Positions 2,394 to 10,256 of a DNA stretch of 11,592 bases are shown here, piece by piece. Under the pieces are notes generated by a model. The model was not told where the DNA came from and ran no database searches. It saw nothing but the letters and a program-made list of their open reading frames with translations. How positions within the stretch are numbered: position 1 is the stretch's first letter; every line of letters starts with the position of its first letter. The stretch is from a virus. Taxonomy: Duplodnaviria > Heunggongvirae > Uroviricota > Caudoviricetes. Made by a program: the position numbers and the translations under genes. The DNA is taken from the IMG/VR virus record IMGVR_UViG_2657245521_000009. One strand, 5' to 3'.

Positions 2394-3311
2394 TCACCCC
2401 CTGAAACCCGGTGGAATGGTTGTGTCCGGTGGCGAAATATCCTGAATCCTGGTCGGGCTGTCGCGGCCACGATTGCCTCCCCGGTCCTGGTCTTTTGCCA
2501 GCCAGCCGGTGATAAATTTCCTGATGCCTCGGGCGGTTTTTCGTCGTCGTCGTTCGCTGAGCAGCCATCCGCGCTGATTACGCAGTGCCTGCCGGACGTC
2601 GACCGCCGGATACAGCGTCTCAAACTCGACAACCATCGATTCGGTCACGGAAAATTCAGAACCGTCGTTGAGCGGAAGCCGAATAAACTCAGGGTCATCA
2701 GGCGGTGTTGATGGCACACCAGCGCTCAGAGGCCGACGCTCAGGTCCGACATGGGCTGGTCCGGTACCATCGGGCAAACTCGCACCCTGTGACCCGAAAT
2801 TTTCATCCAGTTGCGTGGGGCTGATTTTTTCAGCTCCGCGCAAGAGGTTTTGATCTTTTAGATCTGTTTCTTTATCTTTATCTGGATCTTTATTAGTTGC
2901 CTTTGTGTTGGGCTCCTGTTCAAACACAGAACCAACACCTGTTGAACATGTGTTATTTTCGCTGGCAGATTGTGCTTCCTTCCTGTTCCTTCTTGACTGA
3001 ACAGATGCTTTTCCTGCTGCAGACTTTTTCGCTAAGGTTTCCCTGACCGAATGAAGATCATCTTCAATACGCTTGTGAACCCACTCCGTGCCGTTATCAG
3101 TAAAAAATTCTCTCAACGACTCTTCTACGGCTCCCCAACGCTCACTGCTAACCCGGGCAATCTTTGCCAGCCTGTTTTTCGGTATAGCCCTTCCGGTCTG
3201 CCAGTAATTGAACATCAGCAGTAAATAGGCCCCATGCTCCTCGGTTGAAAGATGCATTGTGTCAGCCAAGTAATCAGCGATATAAAGCTGCATGTATGGA
3301 AGTGCCGCCAT
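2394..3311 (-). CDS. Phage replication initiation/organizer protein (DUF1376/YdaU-like N-terminal domain; lambda O analogue), 305 aa
   Basis: N-terminus MAALPYMQLYIADYLADTMHLSTEEHGAYLLLMFNYWQTG fits the DUF1376 pattern from memory; K/D-rich low-complexity linker; sits upstream of the DnaC-like gene as in O-P type replication modules; SD GAGG before the ATG at 3311. Confidence 0.75.
   Translation of the reverse strand: MAALPYMQLYIADYLADTMHLSTEEHGAYLLLMFNYWQTGRAIPKNRLAKIARVSSERWGAVEESLREFFTDNGTEWVHKRIEDDLHSVRETLAKKSAAGKASVQSRRNRKEAQSASENNTCSTGVGSVFEQEPNTKATNKDPDKDKETDLKDQNLLRGAEKISPTQLDENFGSQGASLPDGTGPAHVGPERRPLSAGVPSTPPDDPEFIRLPLNDGSEFSVTESMVVEFETLYPAVDVRQALRNQRGWLLSERRRRKTARGIRKFITGWLAKDQDRGGNRGRDSPTRIQDISPPDTTIPPGFRG
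2851..2895. other. Candidate replication origin iterons inside the organizer gene
   Basis: ATCTTT(T)A-type repeats starting near 2853, 2862, 2874, 2886 (10-12 bp spacing) with three GATC sites within 40 bp. Caveat: the same DNA encodes the KDPDKDKETDLKD linker, so the repetition may be purely coding. Confidence 0.25.
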
Positions 3312-3361
3312 AACGCCTCGCTACGCTCTTTTCCGTTCGGTCTGAATACAAAAATTAATAC

Positions 3362-3378
3362 TCACTGGTCATGTCTCT
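3362..3378 (-). repeat. Copy 1 of the 17-nt element AGAGACATGACCAGTGA (minus-strand sense)
   Basis: Plus strand 3362-3378 TCACTGGTCATGTCTCT is identical over 17 nt to 3951-3967; embedded ATG is 61 nt upstream of the organizer gene start (3311) and opens a mini-ORF MTSEY. Confidence 0.7.
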
Positions 3379-3451
3379 CTGTTTGGTGCCGAACCTCCTG
3401 CTGGTGCTAGCCTGCTGATTCCCCAACCAACAGAACCACAGGAGGTTCGAC

Positions 3452-3664
3452 ATGTCAGATACAAAACTTAAAAATGGATTAACGCCTGAACAAATGGCAC
3501 ACGATATCGCTATGGTGCTCATCGGGAACCCATCCCATGAATGGCTTTCGGATAATGCGACCAAAACTCGTAGCACTGAATTAGCAATGAGCGCTGTAGC
3601 AGAAGAAGTCATGAACATGGAAAAACATCTTGCTGCAGCTCTTCATCAGTACACGGAGAACTAA
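3452..3664 (+). CDS. Hypothetical small acidic protein, 70 aa, encoded antisense within the early-right (minus-strand) operon
   Basis: Consensus SD AGGAGG 6 nt before ATG 3452; followed 9 nt after the TAA stop by a strong intrinsic terminator; the overlapping minus-strand ORF 3355..3618 has antisense-like composition. No family recognised. Confidence 0.55.
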   Translation: MSDTKLKNGLTPEQMAHDIAMVLIGNPSHEWLSDNATKTRSTELAMSAVAEEVMNMEKHLAAALHQYTEN

Positions 3665-3672
3665 TCCGCATC

Positions 3673-3700
3673 AAAGGTCGCTGAGTTCGCGACCTTTTTT
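3673..3700. terminator. Rho-independent terminator between convergent genes; strong for plus-strand RNA, partial for minus
   Basis: Stem AAAGGTCGC/GCGACCTTT (3673-3681 / 3689-3697), 7-nt loop, T6 run 3695-3700. On the minus strand the same hairpin has only UUUGAUG after it, so it could act as a tR1-like partial terminator. Confidence 0.7.
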
Positions 3701-3921
3701 CAGTCCACTCCAGTAGGCATCCCCAACCATTTTTTTATATCGCTATAACTCAGCGTTATGGGCTGATTTTTGCCGGACTCTTCAACCGGTATGGTATGTT
3801 CCTCTTCAAATTTCTTTTCGAAGGTACGCATGTGCTCACGCCAGGCATTTCGATCTTCGATCGCTTCTTCCCTCCGGTTCAGTCTGGCGTAATACCGTTC
3901 CTGCTCAGTCAACGTTTTCAT
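3700..3921 (-). CDS. Hypothetical small protein, 73 aa
   Basis: ORF 3700..3954; start set at ATG 3921 because AGGAG lies 5 nt upstream; charged, helix-prone product MKTLTEQERYYARLNRREEAIEDRNAWREH... Confidence 0.5.
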   Translation of the reverse strand: MKTLTEQERYYARLNRREEAIEDRNAWREHMRTFEKKFEEEHTIPVEESGKNQPITLSYSDIKKWLGMPTGVD

Positions 3922-3937
3922 TACTTCTCCTGCATGG

Positions 3938-4441
3938 TTACAACAGATGGTCACTGGTCATGTCTCTGATACTGCTGGCGGTAACTGCTTCGTAGCGTCT
4001 GTATTGCTTGTATGGCTTCATCACACTCCCGTTCAAAATCCGTAACAGGCGCACCAAGAAGTACCGCATTTGCCACTGCGGTTTTTTTAAAAACTGTGTA
4101 AGCAGATACTCGATGCTATGCCCTGCCGTGACCTGCTTATGCAGCTCCGGCGCGTGTATCCGGATTGCTTCAAGAACTGCGGGGATTAGCGCTGAAAACT
4201 TTTCGCGGTGCTCTGTCGTTTCGAGTTTTCGCCATCGCTGAAAAATGTTTATACGATTCCGGCGCCATGCTTCGTAATCCACCGTTCCGTCATCACGTTC
4301 TATACGGTGGACAGCAATATCTGGTCTCACTTGCTGTTCCAGAAAGGCGCGGGTGATCAACTGTGTTGCACTTTCCTGACTCATTGCGGGTGTAGCCAGC
4401 CAGGATGACAGTGCTTTGTTGGCATCCTCAGGGGTGATCAT
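3938..4441 (-). CDS. CII-like regulator, YdaT-family (tentative), 167 aa
   Basis: Immediately downstream of the Cro-like gene, overlapping its stop by 14 nt; SD AGGTG 7 nt before ATG 4441; position and size match ydaT of Rac-type immunity regions. Family assignment is from recollection, not a search. Confidence 0.55.
   Translation of the reverse strand: MITPEDANKALSSWLATPAMSQESATQLITRAFLEQQVRPDIAVHRIERDDGTVDYEAWRRNRINIFQRWRKLETTEHREKFSALIPAVLEAIRIHAPELHKQVTAGHSIEYLLTQFLKKPQWQMRYFLVRLLRILNGSVMKPYKQYRRYEAVTASSIRDMTSDHLL
3951..3967 (-). repeat. Copy 2 of the 17-nt element AGAGACATGACCAGTGA (minus-strand sense)
   Basis: Identical 17-mer to 3362-3378; overlaps the last codons of the CII-like gene; embedded ATG is 40 nt upstream of the 73-aa gene start (3921). 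Confidence 0.7.
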
Positions 4442-4703
4442 CGTTGTTCACCTCTCTCGCATCCTTTAGTGGTAGATTTTGATGGCTAGGCAAAGCATCC
4501 GTTGGATTAGGGTAAAGAACTGAGTCGAGCTGATGCGGTGTAACTGCATACCCTACGGCCTCACAAAAAGGAATAATTCGTCGCGGTGGGAATTTTCCTG
4601 TTGTAACCCATAGACTTACGTTTTGCTGACTAGTTTTAAGACGTCGGGCGATCTCGGTCTGATTAGTGATGCCGAATAGTCGGCTCCTGGTTTTAAATTC
4701 CAT
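4428..4703 (-). CDS. Cro-like HTH regulator, YdaS-family pattern, 91 aa
   Basis: HTH segment GITNQTEIARRLKTSQQNVSLWV followed by the P..R...EAVGY.V....L motif typical of YdaS-like proteins; GGAGG 4 nt before ATG 4703; divergent from the repressor gene across a 102-bp operator region. Confidence 0.7.
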   Translation of the reverse strand: MEFKTRSRLFGITNQTEIARRLKTSQQNVSLWVTTGKFPPRRIIPFCEAVGYAVTPHQLDSVLYPNPTDALPSHQNLPLKDAREVNNDDHP

Positions 4704-4805
4704 ATATCCTCCAAATGTCACACTTGTATAAATACAGCATGAACTTGTATTTTACAAATTTAAATTTGTGTGACGCTAACAAAATTTACTTGTAAAATAT
4801 GAGGT
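4704..4805. promoter_or_regulatory. Divergent promoter/operator region between the cro-like and cI-like genes (OR-like)
   Basis: AT-rich; perfect 16-bp palindrome ACAAATTTAAATTTGT (4754-4769); TTGTA-N3-TACAA inverted repeat (4745-4757); ACTTGTA half-sites at 4722-4728, 4743-4749, 4788-4794; TTGTAAAAT present in both orientations (candidate -10 elements); TAAAAT 4793-4798 ends 7 nt before the repressor ATG. Confidence 0.6.
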
Positions 4806-5240
4806 ATGAAAAAAAACAACGAATCAGCTCAATACGAGACTTCAGCCAGAAGGATCAAACAGGTCCTGTATGAATTAGGCTGGAACCAAAGTCGCCTGGC
4901 TAAAGAAATTGGGGTTTCAGCTCAGGCGGTACAACAATGGGCAAAAGGTACTTCTCGACCGAATGGCCCTAATCTAACTCGACTTTCTGAAGTCACAAGC
5001 AAACCTGAAGCATGGTTTTTCAGTGATGTCAGCGGGTTATCTGAGAGTCATGCAGTACATTTACCAGAAAGTAATGGTTCAGACTTTCTCCCGCTTAGCG
5101 ATGAAGAGATCAGACTGCTAACTGTCTTCAGGAAATTTCCTTCTGTAGAGAGTAAAAACATGCTGTTAGCGTTTGAGATGAGACTTCAGGAGATAAAAGA
5201 ATACTATTCCAAATACGCTAATCCCAATAAAAACCGATAG
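4806..5240 (+). CDS. CI/RacR-like prophage repressor, HTH_XRE N-terminal domain, no S24 peptidase domain, 144 aa
   Basis: HTH QSRLAKEIGVSAQAVQQWAKG; divergent from the cro-like gene; C-terminal 60 aa lack an Ala-Gly cleavage site and Ser-Lys dyad; candidate -10 immediately upstream suggests a short or absent leader. Confidence 0.8.
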   Translation: MKKNNESAQYETSARRIKQVLYELGWNQSRLAKEIGVSAQAVQQWAKGTSRPNGPNLTRLSEVTSKPEAWFFSDVSGLSESHAVHLPESNGSDFLPLSDEEIRLLTVFRKFPSVESKNMLLAFEMRLQEIKEYYSKYANPNKNR

Positions 5241-5266
5241 TCTCCTTCTTTCCTCCCCCAACAATC

Positions 5267-5293
5267 ACAAGCCTGCTTGAAATGCAGGCTTGT
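5267..5293. terminator. Strong hairpin after the repressor gene; possible terminator lacking a U tract
   Basis: Perfect 10-bp stem ACAAGCCTGC/GCAGGCTTGT (5267-5276 / 5284-5293) with 7-nt loop; no T run on either strand, so function is uncertain. Confidence 0.3.
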
Positions 5294-5299
5294 TACACC

Positions 5300-5420
5300 T
5301 CGCATAATAAAACACTTAAATTTCATACAATTAAAAATTTTTAGTGATTTTCTCACTTTAAACACTTGTATTTATCAAATCCATTTTGTAGATTGATTGT
5401 ACAAATCCTCTAGCAACACA
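5300..5420 (+). promoter_or_regulatory. Candidate left operator/promoter (OL/PL-like) for the plus-strand early operon
   Basis: AT-rich; 10-mer ACACTTGTAT (5362-5371) is identical to 4720-4729 in the cro/cI intergenic region; further TTGTA half-sites at 5386-5390 and the palindrome TTGTACAA at 5397-5404. Confidence 0.45.
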
Positions 5421-5476
5421 TGCGCGACAGGTAAACGTTCCGCCGACGGGCGTAAAACAAAGATGAGGACGACAGA

Positions 5477-5665
5477 GTGGACAAGACTGAACTGAAACAC
5501 ATTATCGCCCTGCTCCTGGAAGATGCAAAACGTCTTCAGCAGGTTGAACCAAATGCAGGCACTGAGGCCCGCATATGGTTGGCTAATAAAACACTTAATT
5601 CATTCAGAGAGTTAAGCGGTTTTGCAAGAGGGTCAGGTATCTCTACCGAACACCAACTTTCTTAG
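5477..5665 (+). CDS. Hypothetical small protein, 62 aa, GTG start
   Basis: GTG 5477 with GAGG 8 nt upstream; first ORF after the OL/PL-like region; 3' end overlaps the convergent zinc-ribbon gene by 23 nt, which lowers confidence. Confidence 0.35.
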   Translation: MDKTELKHIIALLLEDAKRLQQVEPNAGTEARIWLANKTLNSFRELSGFARGSGISTEHQLS

Positions 5666-5831
5666 CTAGCGCCTCCATAATAATAGAATGTCGTTCGCTA
5701 AGAATGCCGATTGCCGCCCCGCAAAGTGCACACTGAACGAAGTGAATAATGTGACTGCAATTTTTCACTGAGGAATTGGTTTTTAACTCAAAAGAAGTTG
5801 ATGGGCATTTTGGACAGGTTGTTACAGCCAT
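5643..5831 (-). CDS. Small zinc-ribbon protein (C-x2-C ... C-x2-C), 62 aa
   Basis: Translation MAVTTCPKCPSTSF...VQCALCGAAIG has Cys 6, 9, 34, 37; GGAGGG 6 nt before ATG 5831; transcribed against the plus-strand early operon. Confidence 0.55.
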   Translation of the reverse strand: MAVTTCPKCPSTSFELKTNSSVKNCSHIIHFVQCALCGAAIGILSERHSIIMEALAKKVGVR

Positions 5832-5923
5832 ATTTTACCCTCCACGGGGTCGATGTTGGTGGAGTTCCCGACGGACGAGGTCGGGAATGTGCGCCGGACA
5901 CAGGTATAAATCCGGCATACGAA

Positions 5924-5950
5924 ATTCGTATCACATGCAGGATATGTATT
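5924..5950. repeat. Copy B of the shared element ATTCGTATCACA(A/T)GCAG...GATATG
   Basis: Contiguous 27-mer ATTCGTATCACATGCAGGATATGTATT matching copy A (804-848) apart from the insert in A; lies 93-119 nt upstream of the zinc-ribbon gene start (minus sense). Confidence 0.6.
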
Positions 5951-6077
5951 TAAACACGAGCACATAACCGAAAACGCACTACGCAGAACCTTCCTTGTCG
6001 GGTCTGTCGTTAAATTTACTGCGATAGTGCGTTTCCGGTTATGAGTGAAAATCATAACAGTGCTGTGTGTAGTCTTT

Positions 6078-6123
6078 GACGGTATCCGTTAACAAAGTTT
6101 TCCTGGCTGATACCGTCCTTTTT
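6078..6123 (+). terminator. Intrinsic terminator, plus strand
   Basis: 9-bp stem GACGGTATC/GATACCGTC (6078-6086 / 6109-6117), 22-nt loop, then CTTTTT (6118-6123); the reverse strand has no U tract. Confidence 0.5.
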
Positions 6124-6308
6124 CAGAATGAATTTTATAGTGTGGTGAATGCGGCTCAGCGCACGTGACACAGTTAAAAACATGTCAGTCCTTCATCTGT
6201 TGATGGGTGGGAATGTTCGTCGGCAGTAATGGTTAGCTGTTTACTGTCACCGGGAGGCACCCGGCACCACACTCCAAAATTCATTGTGTTACCAGAATGG
6301 AGACAACT

Positions 6309-6599
6309 ATGCCAGTTACACCTGAAATAAAACAAAACTCAGACTGGATGCGGCGCAACAAATCTGAACAAACCGCCCCTGCCTGTAAGCCTGGTATTAT
6401 TCAGAAAATATTAAGTACGCTGAACCAGAAAGGTGACCCCACCCTTATTCCTTGCGCTTATTGTGGCAAAGCCATCAACAAAAGTGAAATCGTGGAGCAT
6501 GAACTTATTTATATAAACGGAAGTCAGCTCGCAAGAAAAACGAATCTATATTGCAGTAAACGATGTGCCGAATATGACCAGATGGCACATGAATCTTAA
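6309..6599 (+). CDS. Hypothetical Cys-containing small protein (CAYCGK ... CSKRC, possible zinc ribbon), 96 aa
   Basis: ORF 6297..6599; start set at ATG 6309, which has GGAGA 5 nt upstream; family not recognised. Confidence 0.5.
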   Translation: MPVTPEIKQNSDWMRRNKSEQTAPACKPGIIQKILSTLNQKGDPTLIPCAYCGKAINKSEIVEHELIYINGSQLARKTNLYCSKRCAEYDQMAHES

Positions 6600-6682
6600 T
6601 AGCTGAAAGTTTAACACTGCATTAACCCTGAAACTATGCCTGCAATGGCAGGATATCACTCACCCTGAAAAGAGAATATAAA

Positions 6683-7015
6683 ATGAGAAAGACACCGAGC
6701 GAATCAGTAATTAATGAACTCAACAAACGAGCAAAGGAAATTCTTGAACTGTGTGAGAAAAACGATATTCCGGTTGTTTTTTGTTACTCATTCGAATTAA
6801 GCCGGAATGAAAATGGATATTTAAACAACAAATCCATTACAGCTTATATCAATAAAGAGAAAGGAGCATGGGATTCAACAATAGCCGCAGCCAGCATGAT
6901 CCTGCGGATGAAAGAGGTTCCTGAGATAGCTATCCATGCAATGGCTGAAATGGCTGCGATTTGTGACATCACACGGACTGCATCCGGTACTTCAGATGAA
7001 AAAAGCCTGCACTAA
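6683..7015 (+). CDS. Hypothetical protein, 110 aa
   Basis: ORF 6683..7015 with ATG start and weak AAGAGA SD; followed by a terminator-like hairpin that contains its stop codon; family not recognised. Confidence 0.5.
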   Translation: MRKTPSESVINELNKRAKEILELCEKNDIPVVFCYSFELSRNENGYLNNKSITAYINKEKGAWDSTIAAASMILRMKEVPEIAIHAMAEMAAICDITRTASGTSDEKSLH

Positions 7016-7027
7016 GGCAGGCATTTT
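7005..7027 (+). terminator. Candidate intrinsic terminator after the 110-aa gene
   Basis: 6-bp GC stem GCCTGC/GCAGGC (7005-7010 / 7017-7022), 6-nt loop containing the TAA stop, then ATTTT; same stem sequence as the hairpin at 5267-5293. Confidence 0.45.
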
Positions 7028-7078
7028 CCCGGTTTTTACATCCCGGCGATGCTGAGGTGGGCGACCAAACCCACCGAC

Positions 7079-7095
7079 AGAGACATGACCAATGA
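7079..7095 (+). repeat. Copy 3 of the 17-nt element (AGAGACATGACCAATGA), plus-strand sense
   Basis: 16/17 identical to the minus-strand copies; embedded ATG is 67 nt upstream of the recE start (7152) and opens a mini-ORF MTNEHQR; flanked by hairpins at 7056-7075 and 7102-7122. Confidence 0.65.
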
Positions 7096-7151
7096 GCACC
7101 AGAGGTGATCACCGATCGCCTCATTCTAAACAGAAGTGAGGTTAAAAAACA

Positions 7152-10100
7152 ATGAGTGATAAGAAAGAAGATTTCGCGCTGTACTGCCCTGTTAAAAATG
7201 AAGAGGCCAGGAAACGACTTGGAATAAAAGCAGGCTTTTTCTGGGCAACTGCAAAAAAATTATCTGTGGCTGTTTCCCGCTGTATTGCTGCTATGGACGA
7301 TAAGGGGTATGACGAGGATGACTTTAAAAAACCTGTTCGCGTCAATTACCCCGTCGTTAACGACCTGCCTCCTGAAGGCGTGTTTGATACTGAATTCTGC
7401 AACCGTTACGAAAAAGGCGGTCAGGGTGGTATCACAATGGTACTTATCCCCGGCGCTGTTCCCGCCGATCCAATGCACGGCGAAGTCGGCAGGGATATTA
7501 CTGGCAGCGGCAACGCAGACGCAGACGCAGACGCAGGCACAGACGCAGATAATGCTACGGACAATACCGAAAGTACGCTCCTCCCCGCTTACGCTTATAA
7601 CGTCAACGGCGAACTGATGTCGGAAGTGGAAAAGGAAATGTCGCAGCCTGTTTCAGGACTAAGTCTGCCACTTCGTTTCCTGGCGCAATTTAATAACGAC
7701 TGTCCACAACATCAGGTCACACCAGAGCGTTTACGGGAGTTAAACCTTACAGAGCAGGATCCCGACAGTCGTACCGGAACTATTTTACTCGCCATCCAGA
7801 ACAGAAAGGAACAGCTCGAAAAACTGGACACAAAAAACCTGCATCCTTTGGCGACGTACATTGAAAAAGTATTTCCCTGCGGAAAACGACCACAACTCAA
7901 TGATGTCATTAATTTTATCGATGCCGTACTTAATACAGACTATGTCGATCGCGGACTGCTCGTTAAGGAATGGTGCGAAGGTCGTCGAGCCGCGTGCGTA
8001 GAGCATGTAACAGCACCAGAAACCAGGCGTGATAATACTGTGTCAGCGCAGACGGAAACGAAGACTACTGTCACTGAACGTCCGCGTCGTAGCGAAAAAA
8101 CAACGCACCGGACGATTAATTATGAAATTGGCTGTGGCTTATATGACGGCGAGCTGGATCTTCATAACCTGAGGGAACCGCTGGATTTTGCGAAACGCAT
8201 TATGGCGAAAGACCGGGAAGACTGGAAAGTATGGTCAGACACAATCAACTGCATCCCTGGCATCCTGAATTATGACCGCCAGACCATTATCGAGATGGTA
8301 CGAAAAGCCCCCACCCCGACTTATCACAGTGCTGCACTGCGCCGCGAGTGGTGTGATTCTTATCTGCGAGCCTGGGGACGGCTCGATCCCGACTGGAGCC
8401 AGAGCGCCGCTGTCAAAACAGCAGAGTCACATGAAGATGTCTGTGCTGATATCAGGAAGGCCGGAAAGCGCCTGCGTGAAATTGAATCAGGAGTTGGGAT
8501 CAATGAAGAAAAACAGACGACACAGGGAGAACTGGCAGATGAACCGTCAGCGCCTGAATCAGTGGAACCGGCTTCAGCTGAACATCAGCAGAATACGCAG
8601 CCGCTGGATGCTGAGGCATCTGTAAACACCACTAAAACGGAATTCGATGTATTTGCTCTAATGCAGAACTCATCTGTTTATGGCAGCAAAAACACACAGG
8701 AGACGACCAGCAATGTGCAGGTTCAGGACGCTGAAAAGGATGAAAAACAGGCTGGTACTGAAGTTCAGTCAGGCGAAAGCAGTCTGGGAACTGGTGAAGA
8801 GTCAGATACCAGACAGCAAGCCGATGTAAACCAGAATACGGATTCTGTCGCCCAAAATAGCGATTCTGTAAACCAAACTGAACCAGTTTTGGCACAAACC
8901 GAGCCAGAAGTGCAATCTGACGAACCGGCTGTTGTTTACCCCGCTTACTTCGAACCAGGCCGCTATGAGGGTCTGCCGAACGAGGTTTATCACGCAGCCA
9001 ACGGTATCAGCTCGACAATGGTAAAAGATGCGCGGGTGAGCCTGATGTACTTCAATGCGCGCCACGTAGAGAAAACCATTATCAAAGAACGCTCTCCTGT
9101 ACTGGATATCGGTAACCTGGTGCATGCACTGGCGTTGCAGCCAGATCAACTCGATGAAGAATTCAGCATTGAACCCGTAATTCCGGAAGGTGCATTTACC
9201 ACCACGGCAACGATCCGCGCGTTTATTGATGAGCACAACGCCAGCCTGACAGCGATGCTGTCAGCCGACGACATCAAAGCACTGTTAGAAGAGTACAACG
9301 CCACCCTTCCTGCTCAGGTTCAGTTAGGTGGTTCCGTGGAGGAAACTGGCCAGAGCTATATGTCGCTGCCAGAAGAGTTCCAGCGTCTCGAAGCGGACAA
9401 GAAGCAGACCGCAGCGGCAATGAAAGCCTGCATCAAGGAATACAACACCACACTGCCTGCACAAGTGAAAATCAGCGGTAGCCGTGATGCGTTACTCGAG
9501 CAGTTAGCAATCATCAATCCTGACCTGGTGGCGCAGGAAGCGCAGAAGCCCGCGCAGTTGAAAGTGTCCGGCACCAAAGCGGATCTGATTCAGGCCGTGA
9601 AGTCTGTTAATCCTGATGCCATCTTCGCCGACGAACTGCTGGATGCGTGGCGCGAAAATACGCAAGGGAAAGTGCTGGTCACCCGCCAGCAACTGAGCAC
9701 TGCACTGAGCATTCAGAAAGCCCTGCTCGAGCACCCTACAGCGGGCAAGCTACTGACACACCCGAGCCGCGCCGTTGAGGTGAGCTACTTCGGTTTTGAC
9801 GACGAAACCGGTCTGGAAGTCCGCGTTCGTCCCGACCTTGAGATCGATCTTGACGGGGTGCGCATCGGCGCCGACCTGAAAACCATCAGCATGTGGAACA
9901 TTAAACAGGAAGGTCTGCGCGCCAAACTGCACCGCGAAATCATCGACCGTGACTACCACCTGAGTGCTGCCATGTATTGCGAGACCGCAGCGCTTGACCA
10001 GTTCTTCTGGATTTTCGTCAACAAAGACGAGAACTACCACTGGATCGCCATCATCGAGGCATCCGCCGAACTTCTGGAACTGGGCATGCTGGAGTACCGC

Positions 10101-10256
10101 AAGGCAATGCGCGCCATCGCTACCGGCTTTGACACTGGCGAGTGGCCAGCGCCGATCACCTCCGGTAACTCCGATGAAATAGCCGACTACACCGACGAAC
10201 TGAACGATTTCGACACACGCCGCCTTGAAGCGCTGCGTACGGCACAAGGGGAATGA
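7152..10256 (+). CDS. recE: RecE-like exodeoxyribonuclease VIII (5'-3' dsDNA exonuclease with PD-(D/E)XK-type C-terminal domain), 1034 aa
   Basis: N-terminal segments NYPVVNDLPPEG, LPLRFLAQ and EHQQNTQPLDAEASVN resemble E. coli RecE as I recall it; C-terminal region has GLPNEVYHAANGISSTMVKD and RPDLEIDLDG...GADLKT consistent with a PD-(D/E)XK nuclease; followed by a start-overlapping annealing-protein gene. Confidence 0.8.
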   Translation: MSDKKEDFALYCPVKNEEARKRLGIKAGFFWATAKKLSVAVSRCIAAMDDKGYDEDDFKKPVRVNYPVVNDLPPEGVFDTEFCNRYEKGGQGGITMVLIPGAVPADPMHGEVGRDITGSGNADADADAGTDADNATDNTESTLLPAYAYNVNGELMSEVEKEMSQPVSGLSLPLRFLAQFNNDCPQHQVTPERLRELNLTEQDPDSRTGTILLAIQNRKEQLEKLDTKNLHPLATYIEKVFPCGKRPQLNDVINFIDAVLNTDYVDRGLLVKEWCEGRRAACVEHVTAPETRRDNTVSAQTETKTTVTERPRRSEKTTHRTINYEIGCGLYDGELDLHNLREPLDFAKRIMAKDREDWKVWSDTINCIPGILNYDRQTIIEMVRKAPTPTYHSAALRREWCDSYLRAWGRLDPDWSQSAAVKTAESHEDVCADIRKAGKRLREIESGVGINEEKQTTQGELADEPSAPESVEPASAEHQQNTQPLDAEASVNTTKTEFDVFALMQNSSVYGSKNTQETTSNVQVQDAEKDEKQAGTEVQSGESSLGTGEESDTRQQADVNQNTDSVAQNSDSVNQTEPVLAQTEPEVQSDEPAVVYPAYFEPGRYEGLPNEVYHAANGISSTMVKDARVSLMYFNARHVEKTIIKERSPVLDIGNLVHALALQPDQLDEEFSIEPVIPEGAFTTTATIRAFIDEHNASLTAMLSADDIKALLEEYNATLPAQVQLGGSVEETGQSYMSLPEEFQRLEADKKQTAAAMKACIKEYNTTLPAQVKISGSRDALLEQLAIINPDLVAQEAQKPAQLKVSGTKADLIQAVKSVNPDAIFADELLDAWRENTQGKVLVTRQQLSTALSIQKALLEHPTAGKLLTHPSRAVEVSYFGFDDETGLEVRVRPDLEIDLDGVRIGADLKTISMWNIKQEGLRAKLHREIIDRDYHLSAAMYCETAALDQFFWIFVNKDENYHWIAIIEASAELLELGMLEYRKAMRAIATGFDTGEWPAPITSGNSDEIADYTDELNDFDTRRLEALRTAQGE
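7515..7550 (+). repeat. In-frame tandem hexanucleotide repeat (GCAGAC)n inside recE
   Basis: GCAGAC x3 then GCAGGC, ACAGAC, GCAGAT; encodes ADADADAGTDAD in an acidic linker. Confidence 0.8.

Follow-up and report, generated by a model that had tools for sequence, protein, structure and literature searches.

A Repeated Gene Junction in the Early Region of a Rac-like Prophage and a Predicted Antisense RNA Opposite recE

Introduction

Lambdoid phage genomes are mosaics with joints at gene boundaries, and the role and conservation of the linkers at these joints have been debated since 1978. Boundary, or linker, sequences between the modules of lambdoid early operons were reportedly described by Susskind and Botstein in 1978 and, for HK620, by Clark et al. 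in 2001. We analyzed a 17-nt element, AGAGACATGACCARTGA, which occurs three times in a stretch of Caudoviricetes DNA (IMG/VR record IMGVR_UViG_2657245521_000009). The whole stretch of 11,592 nt is called the window here, and its gene content and profile searches identify it as the early region of a Rac-like prophage. We propose that the element is very probably a portable stop/start junction between early genes, that it is occasionally a recombination joint, and that one of its copies lies opposite a probable gene for a small antisense RNA.

Antisense RNAs that act on translation initiation regions form the second group of related systems. In plasmids, antisense control of leader-peptide-coupled translation is known from R1 (CopA/CopT-tap-repA) and from ColIb-P9 (Inc RNA-repY-repZ). 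Among phages, the OOP RNA of lambda is encoded in cis, is antisense to the 3' end of cII and depends on RNase III, while the c4 RNA of P1/P7 and the sar RNA of P22 block ribosome-binding sites. The c4 RNA is processed from a longer transcript, and its short complementary boxes give phage-specific specificity.

Results

The 17-nt repeat in the window and its relatives

Three exact matches to AGAGACATGACCARTGA were found in the window, copy 1 at 3378..3362 and copy 2 at 3967..3951 on the minus strand and copy 3 at 7079..7095 on the plus strand, with no further site even when up to three mismatches were allowed. The repeat noticed in the initial annotation is real and beyond chance (0.04 matches expected; none of 200 dinucleotide shuffles reached three). 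The two minus copies are identical to each other, and the plus copy differs at position 14 only, with A for G. Every copy lies on the coding strand of its neighbor genes. The sequence ACCAAAC described upstream of copy 1 (3387..3381) and copy 3 (7065-7071) was found, as were the mini-open reading frames (mini-ORFs) MTSEY, MTSDHLL and MTNEHQR. Each copy had been placed 40-67 nt upstream of a start codon; counted from the first base of the motif to the ATG of the next long open reading frame (ORF), the distances were 67 nt for copy 1 (replication gene, ATG 3311), 46 nt for copy 2 (73-aa ORF, ATG 3921) and 73 nt for copy 3 (recE, ATG 7152), close to the earlier range. We also considered a sigma-70 promoter inside the motif and rejected it, as the hexamers do not fit and the promoter scanner was silent at every copy.

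The exact motif was recovered from 97 IMG/VR stretches, about ten of which seem to be unrelated chance matches. The motif, whose presence in relatives had been proposed earlier as a check, is thus strongly conserved elsewhere, and it is sense-oriented and ahead of early genes. In the following, L-numbers (L010, L093 and so on) denote individual loci or sequences that we compared with the window; L098 is the Rac prophage of E. coli K-12 and L101 a Pseudescherichia metagenome-assembled genome. We use class A for a motif at the end of a ydaT-like gene with a replication gene next, and class B for a conserved leader before recE. Most contigs of the exact-match scan carried two copies about 3 kb apart, one of each class.

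The motif as a stop/start junction

The 13-nt core of the motif, RGAGACATGACCA, occurs four to six times per genome in some lineages when mismatches are allowed, always in sense. In L093, L038, L042, L089 and L101 it abuts the start codons of real genes, which begin at motif positions 14-16. Besides a DUF4942 protein (545-568 aa) and a DUF4224 excisionase-like protein (78-82 aa), they encode products of 258-277, 93 and 61 aa. Phages differ in the start codon of the DUF4224 gene at these positions, one using ATG and another GTG. In several genomes the upstream gene stops within the motif, with TGA at positions 8-10 or 15-17. The motif thus consists of a purine-rich block at positions 1-5 that resembles a Shine-Dalgarno (SD) sequence, out-of-frame TGAs at 8-10 and 15-17, and an RTG start at 14-16. 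Having both the stops of upstream genes and the start of the downstream gene within the motif suggests that translation is passed from gene to gene. In the Rahnella variant, CGAGGWATGACCAATGR, a canonical GAGG stands 8 nt ahead of the ATG. The reading frame in which the YdaT-like gene enters the motif varies among phages, which argues that the motif is conserved at the nucleotide level and not at the protein level. We consider it very probable that the motif is a portable junction with a translational-coupling role between early genes.

At the DUF4224 gene, the CAUGACC of the motif pairs with an upstream GGUCAUG and leaves the SD in the loop (L070 11640-11680, L089 12190-12230, L090 3600-3640 and L099 at about 1695). 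This conserved GGUCAUG/CAUGACC hairpin over the initiation region might gate the translation of the gene.

The recE leader

Copy 3 lies in the leader of recE (7152-10256, plus strand). The ATG at 7092 within this copy opens an upstream ORF (uORF) of 15 codons (MSTRGDHRSPHSKQK, 7092..7139, plus strand), whose TGA (7137-7139) falls inside the recE SD, GTGAGG (7136-7141). A plus-strand hairpin formed by CCUCAUUCU and AGAAGUGAGG (7119..7141) sequesters this SD, and its equivalents covary in L093, L101 and the L010 type. Judged from the sequence, the recE leader is laid out as in genes whose translation is coupled via a leader ORF, from which we infer the coupling itself. In relatives the stop of the bridging ORF invariably falls within -25 to +6 of the main start, while the peptides, and even the frames, vary. 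Leader-peptide translational control, one of the roles suggested earlier, survives in an altered form, with bridging ORFs that start from the RTG at 14-16 and not with the mini-ORFs that start at positions 7-9. The class B leader as a whole is an element of about 170 nt conserved from Citrobacter to Rahnella. It includes hairpin H1 (7056..7075; H1' in the antisense strand), which has covarying stems and a conserved loop, CGACCAAA in sense and UUUGGUCG in antisense. The H1' loop UUUGGUCG contains the YUNR motif UUGG, as read directly from the sequence.

Copies 1 and 2 flank an inserted cassette

The two minus-strand copies are not independent sites. The window aligns from 4450 to 3951 through the last base of the single motif in L058 (2120-2136), L070 and L010, and from 3378 to 1658 starting at the first base of that same motif. 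Since both blocks of homology meet the one motif of the relatives, copies 1 and 2 represent a single ydaT/replication-gene junction duplicated around an insert. The insert is a 572-bp cassette (3379-3950) flanked by the motif as a 17-bp direct repeat, and it is missing in relatives with one motif at this place. It contains an 84/73-aa ORF on the minus strand, a bidirectional terminator, a convergent 70-aa ORF on the plus strand and a long hairpin.

Copy 2 (3951..3967, minus strand) supplies the last codons and the TGA (3953..3951) of the conserved ydaT frame. Its GTG (3954..3952) overlaps this TGA and opens the 84-aa ORF (3700..3954, minus strand), whose frame also contains the internal 73-aa start at 3921, so that the earlier placing of copy 2 upstream of a gene is right as far as this ORF goes and leaves out the ydaT end (QRHDQ*) that the copy also encodes. 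The unrelated genes inserted in L035 and L091 are likewise in frame with the motif GTG. Copy 1 (3362..3378, minus strand) is the right boundary of the cassette, and its GTG (3365..3363) opens a 14-codon bridging uORF (VSINFCIQTERKRA, 3321..3365, minus strand). The TAG of this uORF (3323..3321) stands directly before the SD (CGAGG) and the ATG (3311) of the DUF1376 (YdaU-like) replication gene (2394-3311, minus strand). In L035 the insert is arranged likewise and carries a different gene, and its right end has 36 nt plus the motif in common with the window. The corresponding segment of the window, CAGCAGGAGGTTCGGCACCAAACAG (3381..3414, minus strand), resembles the 5' arm and the loop (ACCAAAC) of the recE-leader hairpin H1. 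Sense-strand structure around copies 1 and 2 was not significant.

Within the cassette, the long hairpin (3387-3452) has a folding energy of about -50 kcal/mol (z = -3.8). In its plus-strand orientation it takes up the SD of the convergent 70-aa ORF (3452-3664), for which no family match was found.

The CII/YdaT-like gene (3938-4441, minus strand) is split over two frames at an A7 run (TTT TTA AAA AAA CCG; 4063-4093 region). Its 45 conserved C-terminal codons lie in the -1 frame after this run (4088..4082), and the conserved frame (3951..4441, minus strand) ends with YRQQYQRHDQ and the TGA of the motif. The conserved C-terminus after the -1 shift, ...KKTAVANAVLLGAPVTDFERECDE...QRHDQ*, is contiguous in L070, L093 and L042, and the split is retained in the L010 type at about 76% identity. 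The A7 run adjoins a hairpin that, with T7, makes a conserved canonical intrinsic terminator of the plus strand (ACCGCATTTGCCACTGCGGT + T7, 4063-4088). Programmed frameshifting or slippage might account for the split, as might a frameshift that is tolerated; alternatively, the terminator may belong to an OOP-like antisense RNA. We found no convincing promoter for the plus-strand terminator at 4063-4088 from which such an OOP-like RNA opposite ydaT might start. In L093, a promoter-like site with an extended -10 (CTGATA-17-AATAAT, TG present; 4841-4869, minus strand) lies just past the ydaT-end motif and faces back into ydaT, placed like lambda pO; it is one consensus match.

Recombination at the motif

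Exchange of genes at the motif could be followed at base-pair resolution. Outside two motif copies, L093 and L038 share 97-98% identity. The interval between the copies is unrelated, a replication gene without homology having been exchanged there, and homology ends within 1-3 nt of the motifs. Homology between the window and L058, L070 and L010 breaks exactly at the motif edges, non-homologous modules are likewise joined at the motif in L035, and YdaT homologues that lack the motif diverge precisely where it would start. Among raw breakpoints, 112 of 2727 fell at the motif, compared to 19 expected. Counting distinct breakpoint contexts over all loci weakens this picture, as only 4 of 198 lay within 10 nt of the motif versus about 1.4 expected, which makes the motif an occasional and not a dominant joint. 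As judged from these alignments, the motif is a genuine but occasional recombination joint. The suggestion that it is a module-boundary recombination sequence thus stands in part, with cassette edges at the motif and only occasional use as a joint.

A predicted antisense RNA opposite the recE leader

On the minus strand opposite copy 3 we predict a small antisense RNA of about 118 nt (6999..7116) that carries the complement of this copy, termed the anti-motif. From 5' to 3' it would consist of helix S2 (7109-7117 with 7087-7095), the exposed anti-motif, H1', a small hairpin Hc (7038-7042 with 7048-7052) and a terminator hairpin (7022..7005) followed by T6 (7004..6999). Helix S2 takes in the first 7-9 nt of the anti-motif, and ...AUGUCUCUG... 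is predicted to be unpaired. The last hairpin lies at the end of the upstream gene, with an A-run before it and a poor T-tail after it on the plus strand, which marks it as a strong intrinsic terminator of minus-strand transcription. Compensatory changes preserve its stem in all class B loci. A putative promoter was located at 7123..7152 (minus strand), with TAGAAT at 7128..7123 as the -10 box and, after a spacer of 18 nt, a weak -35 box, TTGTTT at 7152..7147, that overlaps the recE ATG. The TAnAAT box (TAGAAT, TAAAAT or TATAAT) is invariant in 11 diverse sequences with varying neighbors and lies 21-31 nt before the anti-motif. In L093 alone did the promoter score above the scanner threshold, and there a minus-strand promoter and a terminator bracket the anti-motif.

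The pattern of substitutions favors the antisense strand. Over three helices, 202 of 209 alignment cells are paired in antisense (30 G.U) compared to 172 of 209 in sense (no G.U; A.C mismatches instead), a comparison that itself leans toward the antisense strand, the helices having been first predicted on the antisense alignment. In H1, four independent lineages have an A.C mismatch in sense versus G.U in antisense, in addition to swaps of GC to CG. The RNAalifold energies were -20.3 kcal/mol for antisense and -7.9 kcal/mol for sense, single-sequence folding energies were better for the minus strand by 3-19 kcal/mol, and the z-scores were -4.0, -4.2 and -3.3 in antisense versus -3.0, -3.2 and -1.8 in sense. 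The fraction of paired cells (92.5%) exceeded that in shuffles (85.9%; 0 of 500 reached it) and in slid controls (about 40%), and double-change cells numbered 16 versus 5.4 in shuffles (0 of 500 reached it), with the reservation that the sequences are related and the shuffle tests are inflated by it. Rfam gave no match (E<=1) at 6995-7165 or in the corresponding region of L083, L093, L099 and L102, and our literature search found no description of a small RNA between racC and recE. Taken together, the terminator, the -10 box and the covarying helices indicate that an antisense RNA gene probably exists here.

A -10-like box and an antisense terminator are also found in recE leaders that lack the motif (K-12 Rac, L131 and L139 types), so the antisense unit seems to be general and independent of the motif. 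This suggests a general antisense unit opposite recE leaders, of which the window has one version.

In K-12 Rac (L098 6387-6489), the racC-recE spacer lacks the motif and H1. Opposite recE it has TTGTTT-N18-TAAAAT and an intrinsic terminator (ATAGCCTGCGCCATACGCAGGCTAT with a T-rich tail), from which a shorter antisense RNA of about 75 nt is predicted; the RefSeq record has no such annotation. A 10-nt deletion has removed the predicted antisense -10 box in L006 and L023, and an arm of the terminator is deleted in L024; such natural variants may serve for comparison.

Matching of the antisense RNA to the other motif copies

A duplex of the anti-motif with copy 1 or copy 2 would have 17 bp, one of them G.U. 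The duplex would reach 21 bp in the commonest IMG/VR type and 20-22 bp at several gene starts of L093. In a scan of the window for RNA duplexes the copy-1 region was the best match in trans; the energies of this method are inflated and add little. The ACCAAAC upstream of copy 1 is the loop sequence of H1 and, as read from the sequence, could form a kissing interaction with the H1' loop. Wherever a lineage has both copies, the one at the ydaT end and the one in the recE leader are of the same variant. Three variant classes were found: AGAGACATGACCA.. in the ydaT-end and recE-leader copies of five lineages; AGAGATGTGACCAGTAR in three Citrobacter-type phages, where S2 compensates the G16A change (CCAGTAAG/CTTACTGG); and CGAGGTATGACCAATGG in Rahnella, where the motif lies outside ydaT. 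In at least five lineages, the identity of the ydaT-end and recE-leader copies covers no more than 17-23 nt, and the flanks are unrelated.

We attempted to evaluate the co-occurrence of the two classes in an unbiased recE-anchored sample of 80 loci, seven of which had class B. The class A motif was present in all six class-B loci with ydaT in range and in none of the 42 loci with a ydaT homologue and no class B. The matched variants and the co-occurrence fit co-evolution of an RNA and its targets, and lineage effects or conversion of short tracts could also produce them. That the antisense RNA acts in trans on copies 1 and 2 is a tentative proposal, which we regard as quite possible.

In L107 and L108, the ydaT end (at about 4037, minus strand) shows the deletion AGAG[ACATGACCAG]TGAG, and the recE-leader copy has a point change (AGAAACATGACC).

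Prophage context and distribution

The minus-strand early operon of the window carries a Cro/YdaS-like gene (4428-4721), the ydaT-like gene, the 73/84-aa ORF, the DUF1376 replication gene and a DnaC-like gene. On the plus strand, a RacR-like repressor gene (4806-5240) is followed by small ORFs, by a YdaE-like and a RacC-like gene ahead of recE, and by recE and recT. The same prophage was found beside ttcA, as is Rac in E. coli, in two NCBI assemblies (GCA_010686365.1 and GCA_037004945.1). Among GenBank phages and 5,426 complete E. coli genomes the motif regions had no close relative, and the motif is wholly missing from K-12 Rac. The motif-bearing Rac-like lineage comprises phages of Citrobacter, Pseudescherichia, Rahnella and the host of the window, and not of E. 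coli; a protein-anchored scan of species-representative genomes recovered four loci only.

Ahead of the YdaE-like gene, a DicF-like (24 bits) and an STnc100-like (39.5 bits) RNA lie in tandem at 6064-6321, both with scores below the Rfam gathering scores, and the pair is also present in L083, L093 and L099. The DicF-like terminator is immediately followed by a motif copy (GGAGAYATGACC-ATG) in relatives. Pairing of the DicF-like RNA (6064-6118) with the motif was considered and dropped, as it amounted to about 6 bp by eye. The RacC-like gene is preceded by a second portable leader (TATGCCWGCAATGGCAGG..., window 6636-6682). This TATGCCWGCAATGGCAGG leader sits directly before recE in many other Rac-like phages, E. 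coli types included (recE leaders of L164, L183 and L100), and resembles another exchangeable junction cassette.

Discussion

A model for the motif and the explanations it competes with

We consider it moderately probable that the motif combines three roles, as a coupling junction, as a pairing site for the antisense RNA and as an occasional recombination joint. The 572-bp two-gene cassette entered the ancestral ydaT/replication-gene junction by exchange at the motif. In this model, ribosomes on the bridging ORF would open the hairpin that holds the recE SD. The antisense RNA would pair in cis with the start of the recE-leader uORF. Duplexes of 17-21 bp with no more than one G.U would form in trans at the ydaT end and at the replication-gene leader, and the pairing may block coupled translation, make RNase III substrates, or both. 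As a by-product, the identical junctions of 17-23 nt would serve as crossover points for cassette exchange. A more far-reaching version, which we put forward with less confidence than the action in trans on copies 1 and 2, is that the antisense RNA governs an early regulon of recombination, replication and excision-related genes sharing the 13-17-nt initiation cassette. Selection for complementarity would then keep the junctions identical within a phage and co-varying between phages, and swaps of the RecET type would use them as linkers.

A number of observations speak against the model. The SD-like block AGAGA is weak, and neither the uORF peptides nor their frames are conserved. The -35 box of the putative antisense promoter is weak (three of six positions). 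The sense strand is significantly structured as well (z about -3). The -10-like box lies within the sense SD hairpin and is conserved in motif-less recE leaders, and it could be constrained from the sense side for these reasons. With respect to co-occurrence, L100 and L117 have the ydaT-end motif without a class B partner, L107 and L108 have lost the ydaT-end motif through a 10-nt deletion, and L123 and L124 have a degenerate class B and no class A.

The alternative that survives best needs no antisense RNA. The motif would be a pure boundary sequence, that is, a junction of stop, ribosome-binding site and start spread by recombination, and the identity of its copies would be due to descent and gene conversion. 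Cassettes are inserted or replaced exactly at motif copies, the motif is found at many gene junctions, and the phages encode RecE and RecT; RecET can recombine via short homologies. The co-occurrence of copies within a lineage is equally expected under this explanation. However, it leaves unexplained the antisense terminator, the TAnAAT box and the strand-asymmetric covarying helices at copy 3. Identical tracts of 17-23 nt with unrelated flanks in at least five lineages would be odd products of repeated gene conversion, and breakpoints at the motif are only modestly enriched. We consider a pure boundary sequence unlikely to be the full explanation.

Somewhat lower in our estimate is an antisense RNA that acts in cis only, repressing recE via the leader uORF, with the other copies being homologous junctions and not targets in trans. 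The presence of antisense terminators and a -10-like box in the motif-less recE leaders of the K-12 Rac, L131 and L139 types speaks for such an RNA. The matching of ydaT-end and recE-leader variants in three classes and the co-occurrence of the copies argue against it, as does the fact that positions 1-13, which are kept at all junctions, match the stretch that the RNA is predicted to leave unpaired.

We also evaluated the motif as an operator, either for a DNA-binding regulator of phage or host or for a RegA-like translational repressor of a shared initiation region. The conservation of 13-17 nt at several initiation regions and the lineage variants are what a translational operator regulon would show. 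The operator of YdaT is a TTGATTN6AATCAA inverted repeat (PMC9986795), whereas the motif is non-palindromic and bears no likeness to it, and the motif was rejected as a YdaT (CII-like) operator. Profile searches recognized no candidate RNA-binding protein in the window, and an operator leaves the features of the antisense strand unexplained. This explanation is very improbable.

Equally improbable are functional leader peptides of 5-7 codons opened by the ATG at positions 7-9, which the initial annotation had pointed out. This ATG is present in all three copies, and in the L010 type its frame runs for 24 codons and ends in an ATGA on the recE start. However, the SD-like block is only 1-2 nt from it, the mini-ORFs vary in sequence and in length from 3 to 36 codons, and at copy 2 its frame is merely the unshifted ydaT frame. 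Real genes of 61-568 aa in relatives start at the RTG of positions 14-16, where ATG and GTG alternate in homologues.

The weakest explanation, antitermination sites of the nut or put type with one per divergent early operon, as suggested earlier by a likeness to nutL and nutR, is largely refuted and almost certainly wrong: the window copies are sense-oriented in both divergent operons and hairpin H1 adjoins copy 3, but no boxA (CGCTCTT(T)A) is found at the copies (the sole near-match, at 3324-3332, is on the wrong strand and at chance level), the early ORFs gave no N-like Pfam or PHROG match in profile searches, the only searches made, copy 3 follows a terminator-like hairpin and is distant from any early promoter, copies 1 and 2 have no hairpin beside them, four to six copies abut start codons in relatives, and the inverted arrangement is not a family feature because L093 and L101 carry all copies, the recE-leader one included, on one strand.

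Comparison with known systems

The motif offers a testable case of a linker that bounds cassettes, organizes the hand-over from stop to start, and complements the exposed region of a predicted, uncatalogued RNA. The finding connects a candidate small-RNA regulon with the way in which phage mosaics are made. A real RNA would add a post-transcriptional layer to the control of Rac-type prophages that couples the expression of recET and of the replication gene, would parallel plasmid copy-number control and lambda OOP, and would account for the junctions evolving in concert. If the regulon is also true, there would be a functional reason for the conservation of boundary sequences. If the RNA is not real, the motif still adds a clear new case to the known boundary sequences, one whose exchange events are resolved to the base pair.

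The concept of 'short conserved boundary sequences' is mentioned in PMC3029335. From its sequence context, the motif appears to have the defining features of a boundary sequence. Like those of lambdoid phages, it is a short conserved combination of stop, ribosome-binding site and start at gene junctions, with non-homologous modules on either side and recombinant joints at the motif. It differs in having its own sequence, in belonging to a Rac-like group outside E. coli, in accounting for a small share of breakpoints, and in the reason proposed for its conservation, which is pairing with an antisense RNA.

The likeness of the predicted RNA to CopA/tap/repA, Inc RNA/repY and lambda OOP is an analogy of mechanism without sequence homology, the expression of the RNA being predicted. 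As in the CopA/tap/repA and Inc RNA/repY systems, the main gene is preceded by a short leader ORF that terminates at its SD or start, the SD is sequestered, and an antisense RNA of about 100 nt with a YUNR-loop stem-loop would cover the start of the leader ORF. The context of a phage recE and a replication-gene leader, the lack of sequence similarity and the proposed targets in trans set it apart from CopA and Inc RNA. The predicted target resembles that of lambda OOP, consisting of the last 17-21 nt of the cII-like ydaT and the junction with the replication gene; unlike OOP, the RNA gene of the window lies about 3 kb away, opposite the recE leader, and would act in trans. The phage-specific boxes of c4 resemble the lineage-matched variants of the motif, whereas the genes, structure and targets of c4 and sar are different. 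Like lambda nutL and nutR, the motif is repeated in sense orientation in each of the window's two divergent early operons, and it departs from them in lacking boxA and N, in its placement relative to promoters and terminators, in its multiple copies at gene starts and in not being inverted in relatives. The closest parallels of this locus are found in the boundary sequences for its junctions and, by analogy, in the plasmid and OOP antisense RNAs for its predicted RNA.

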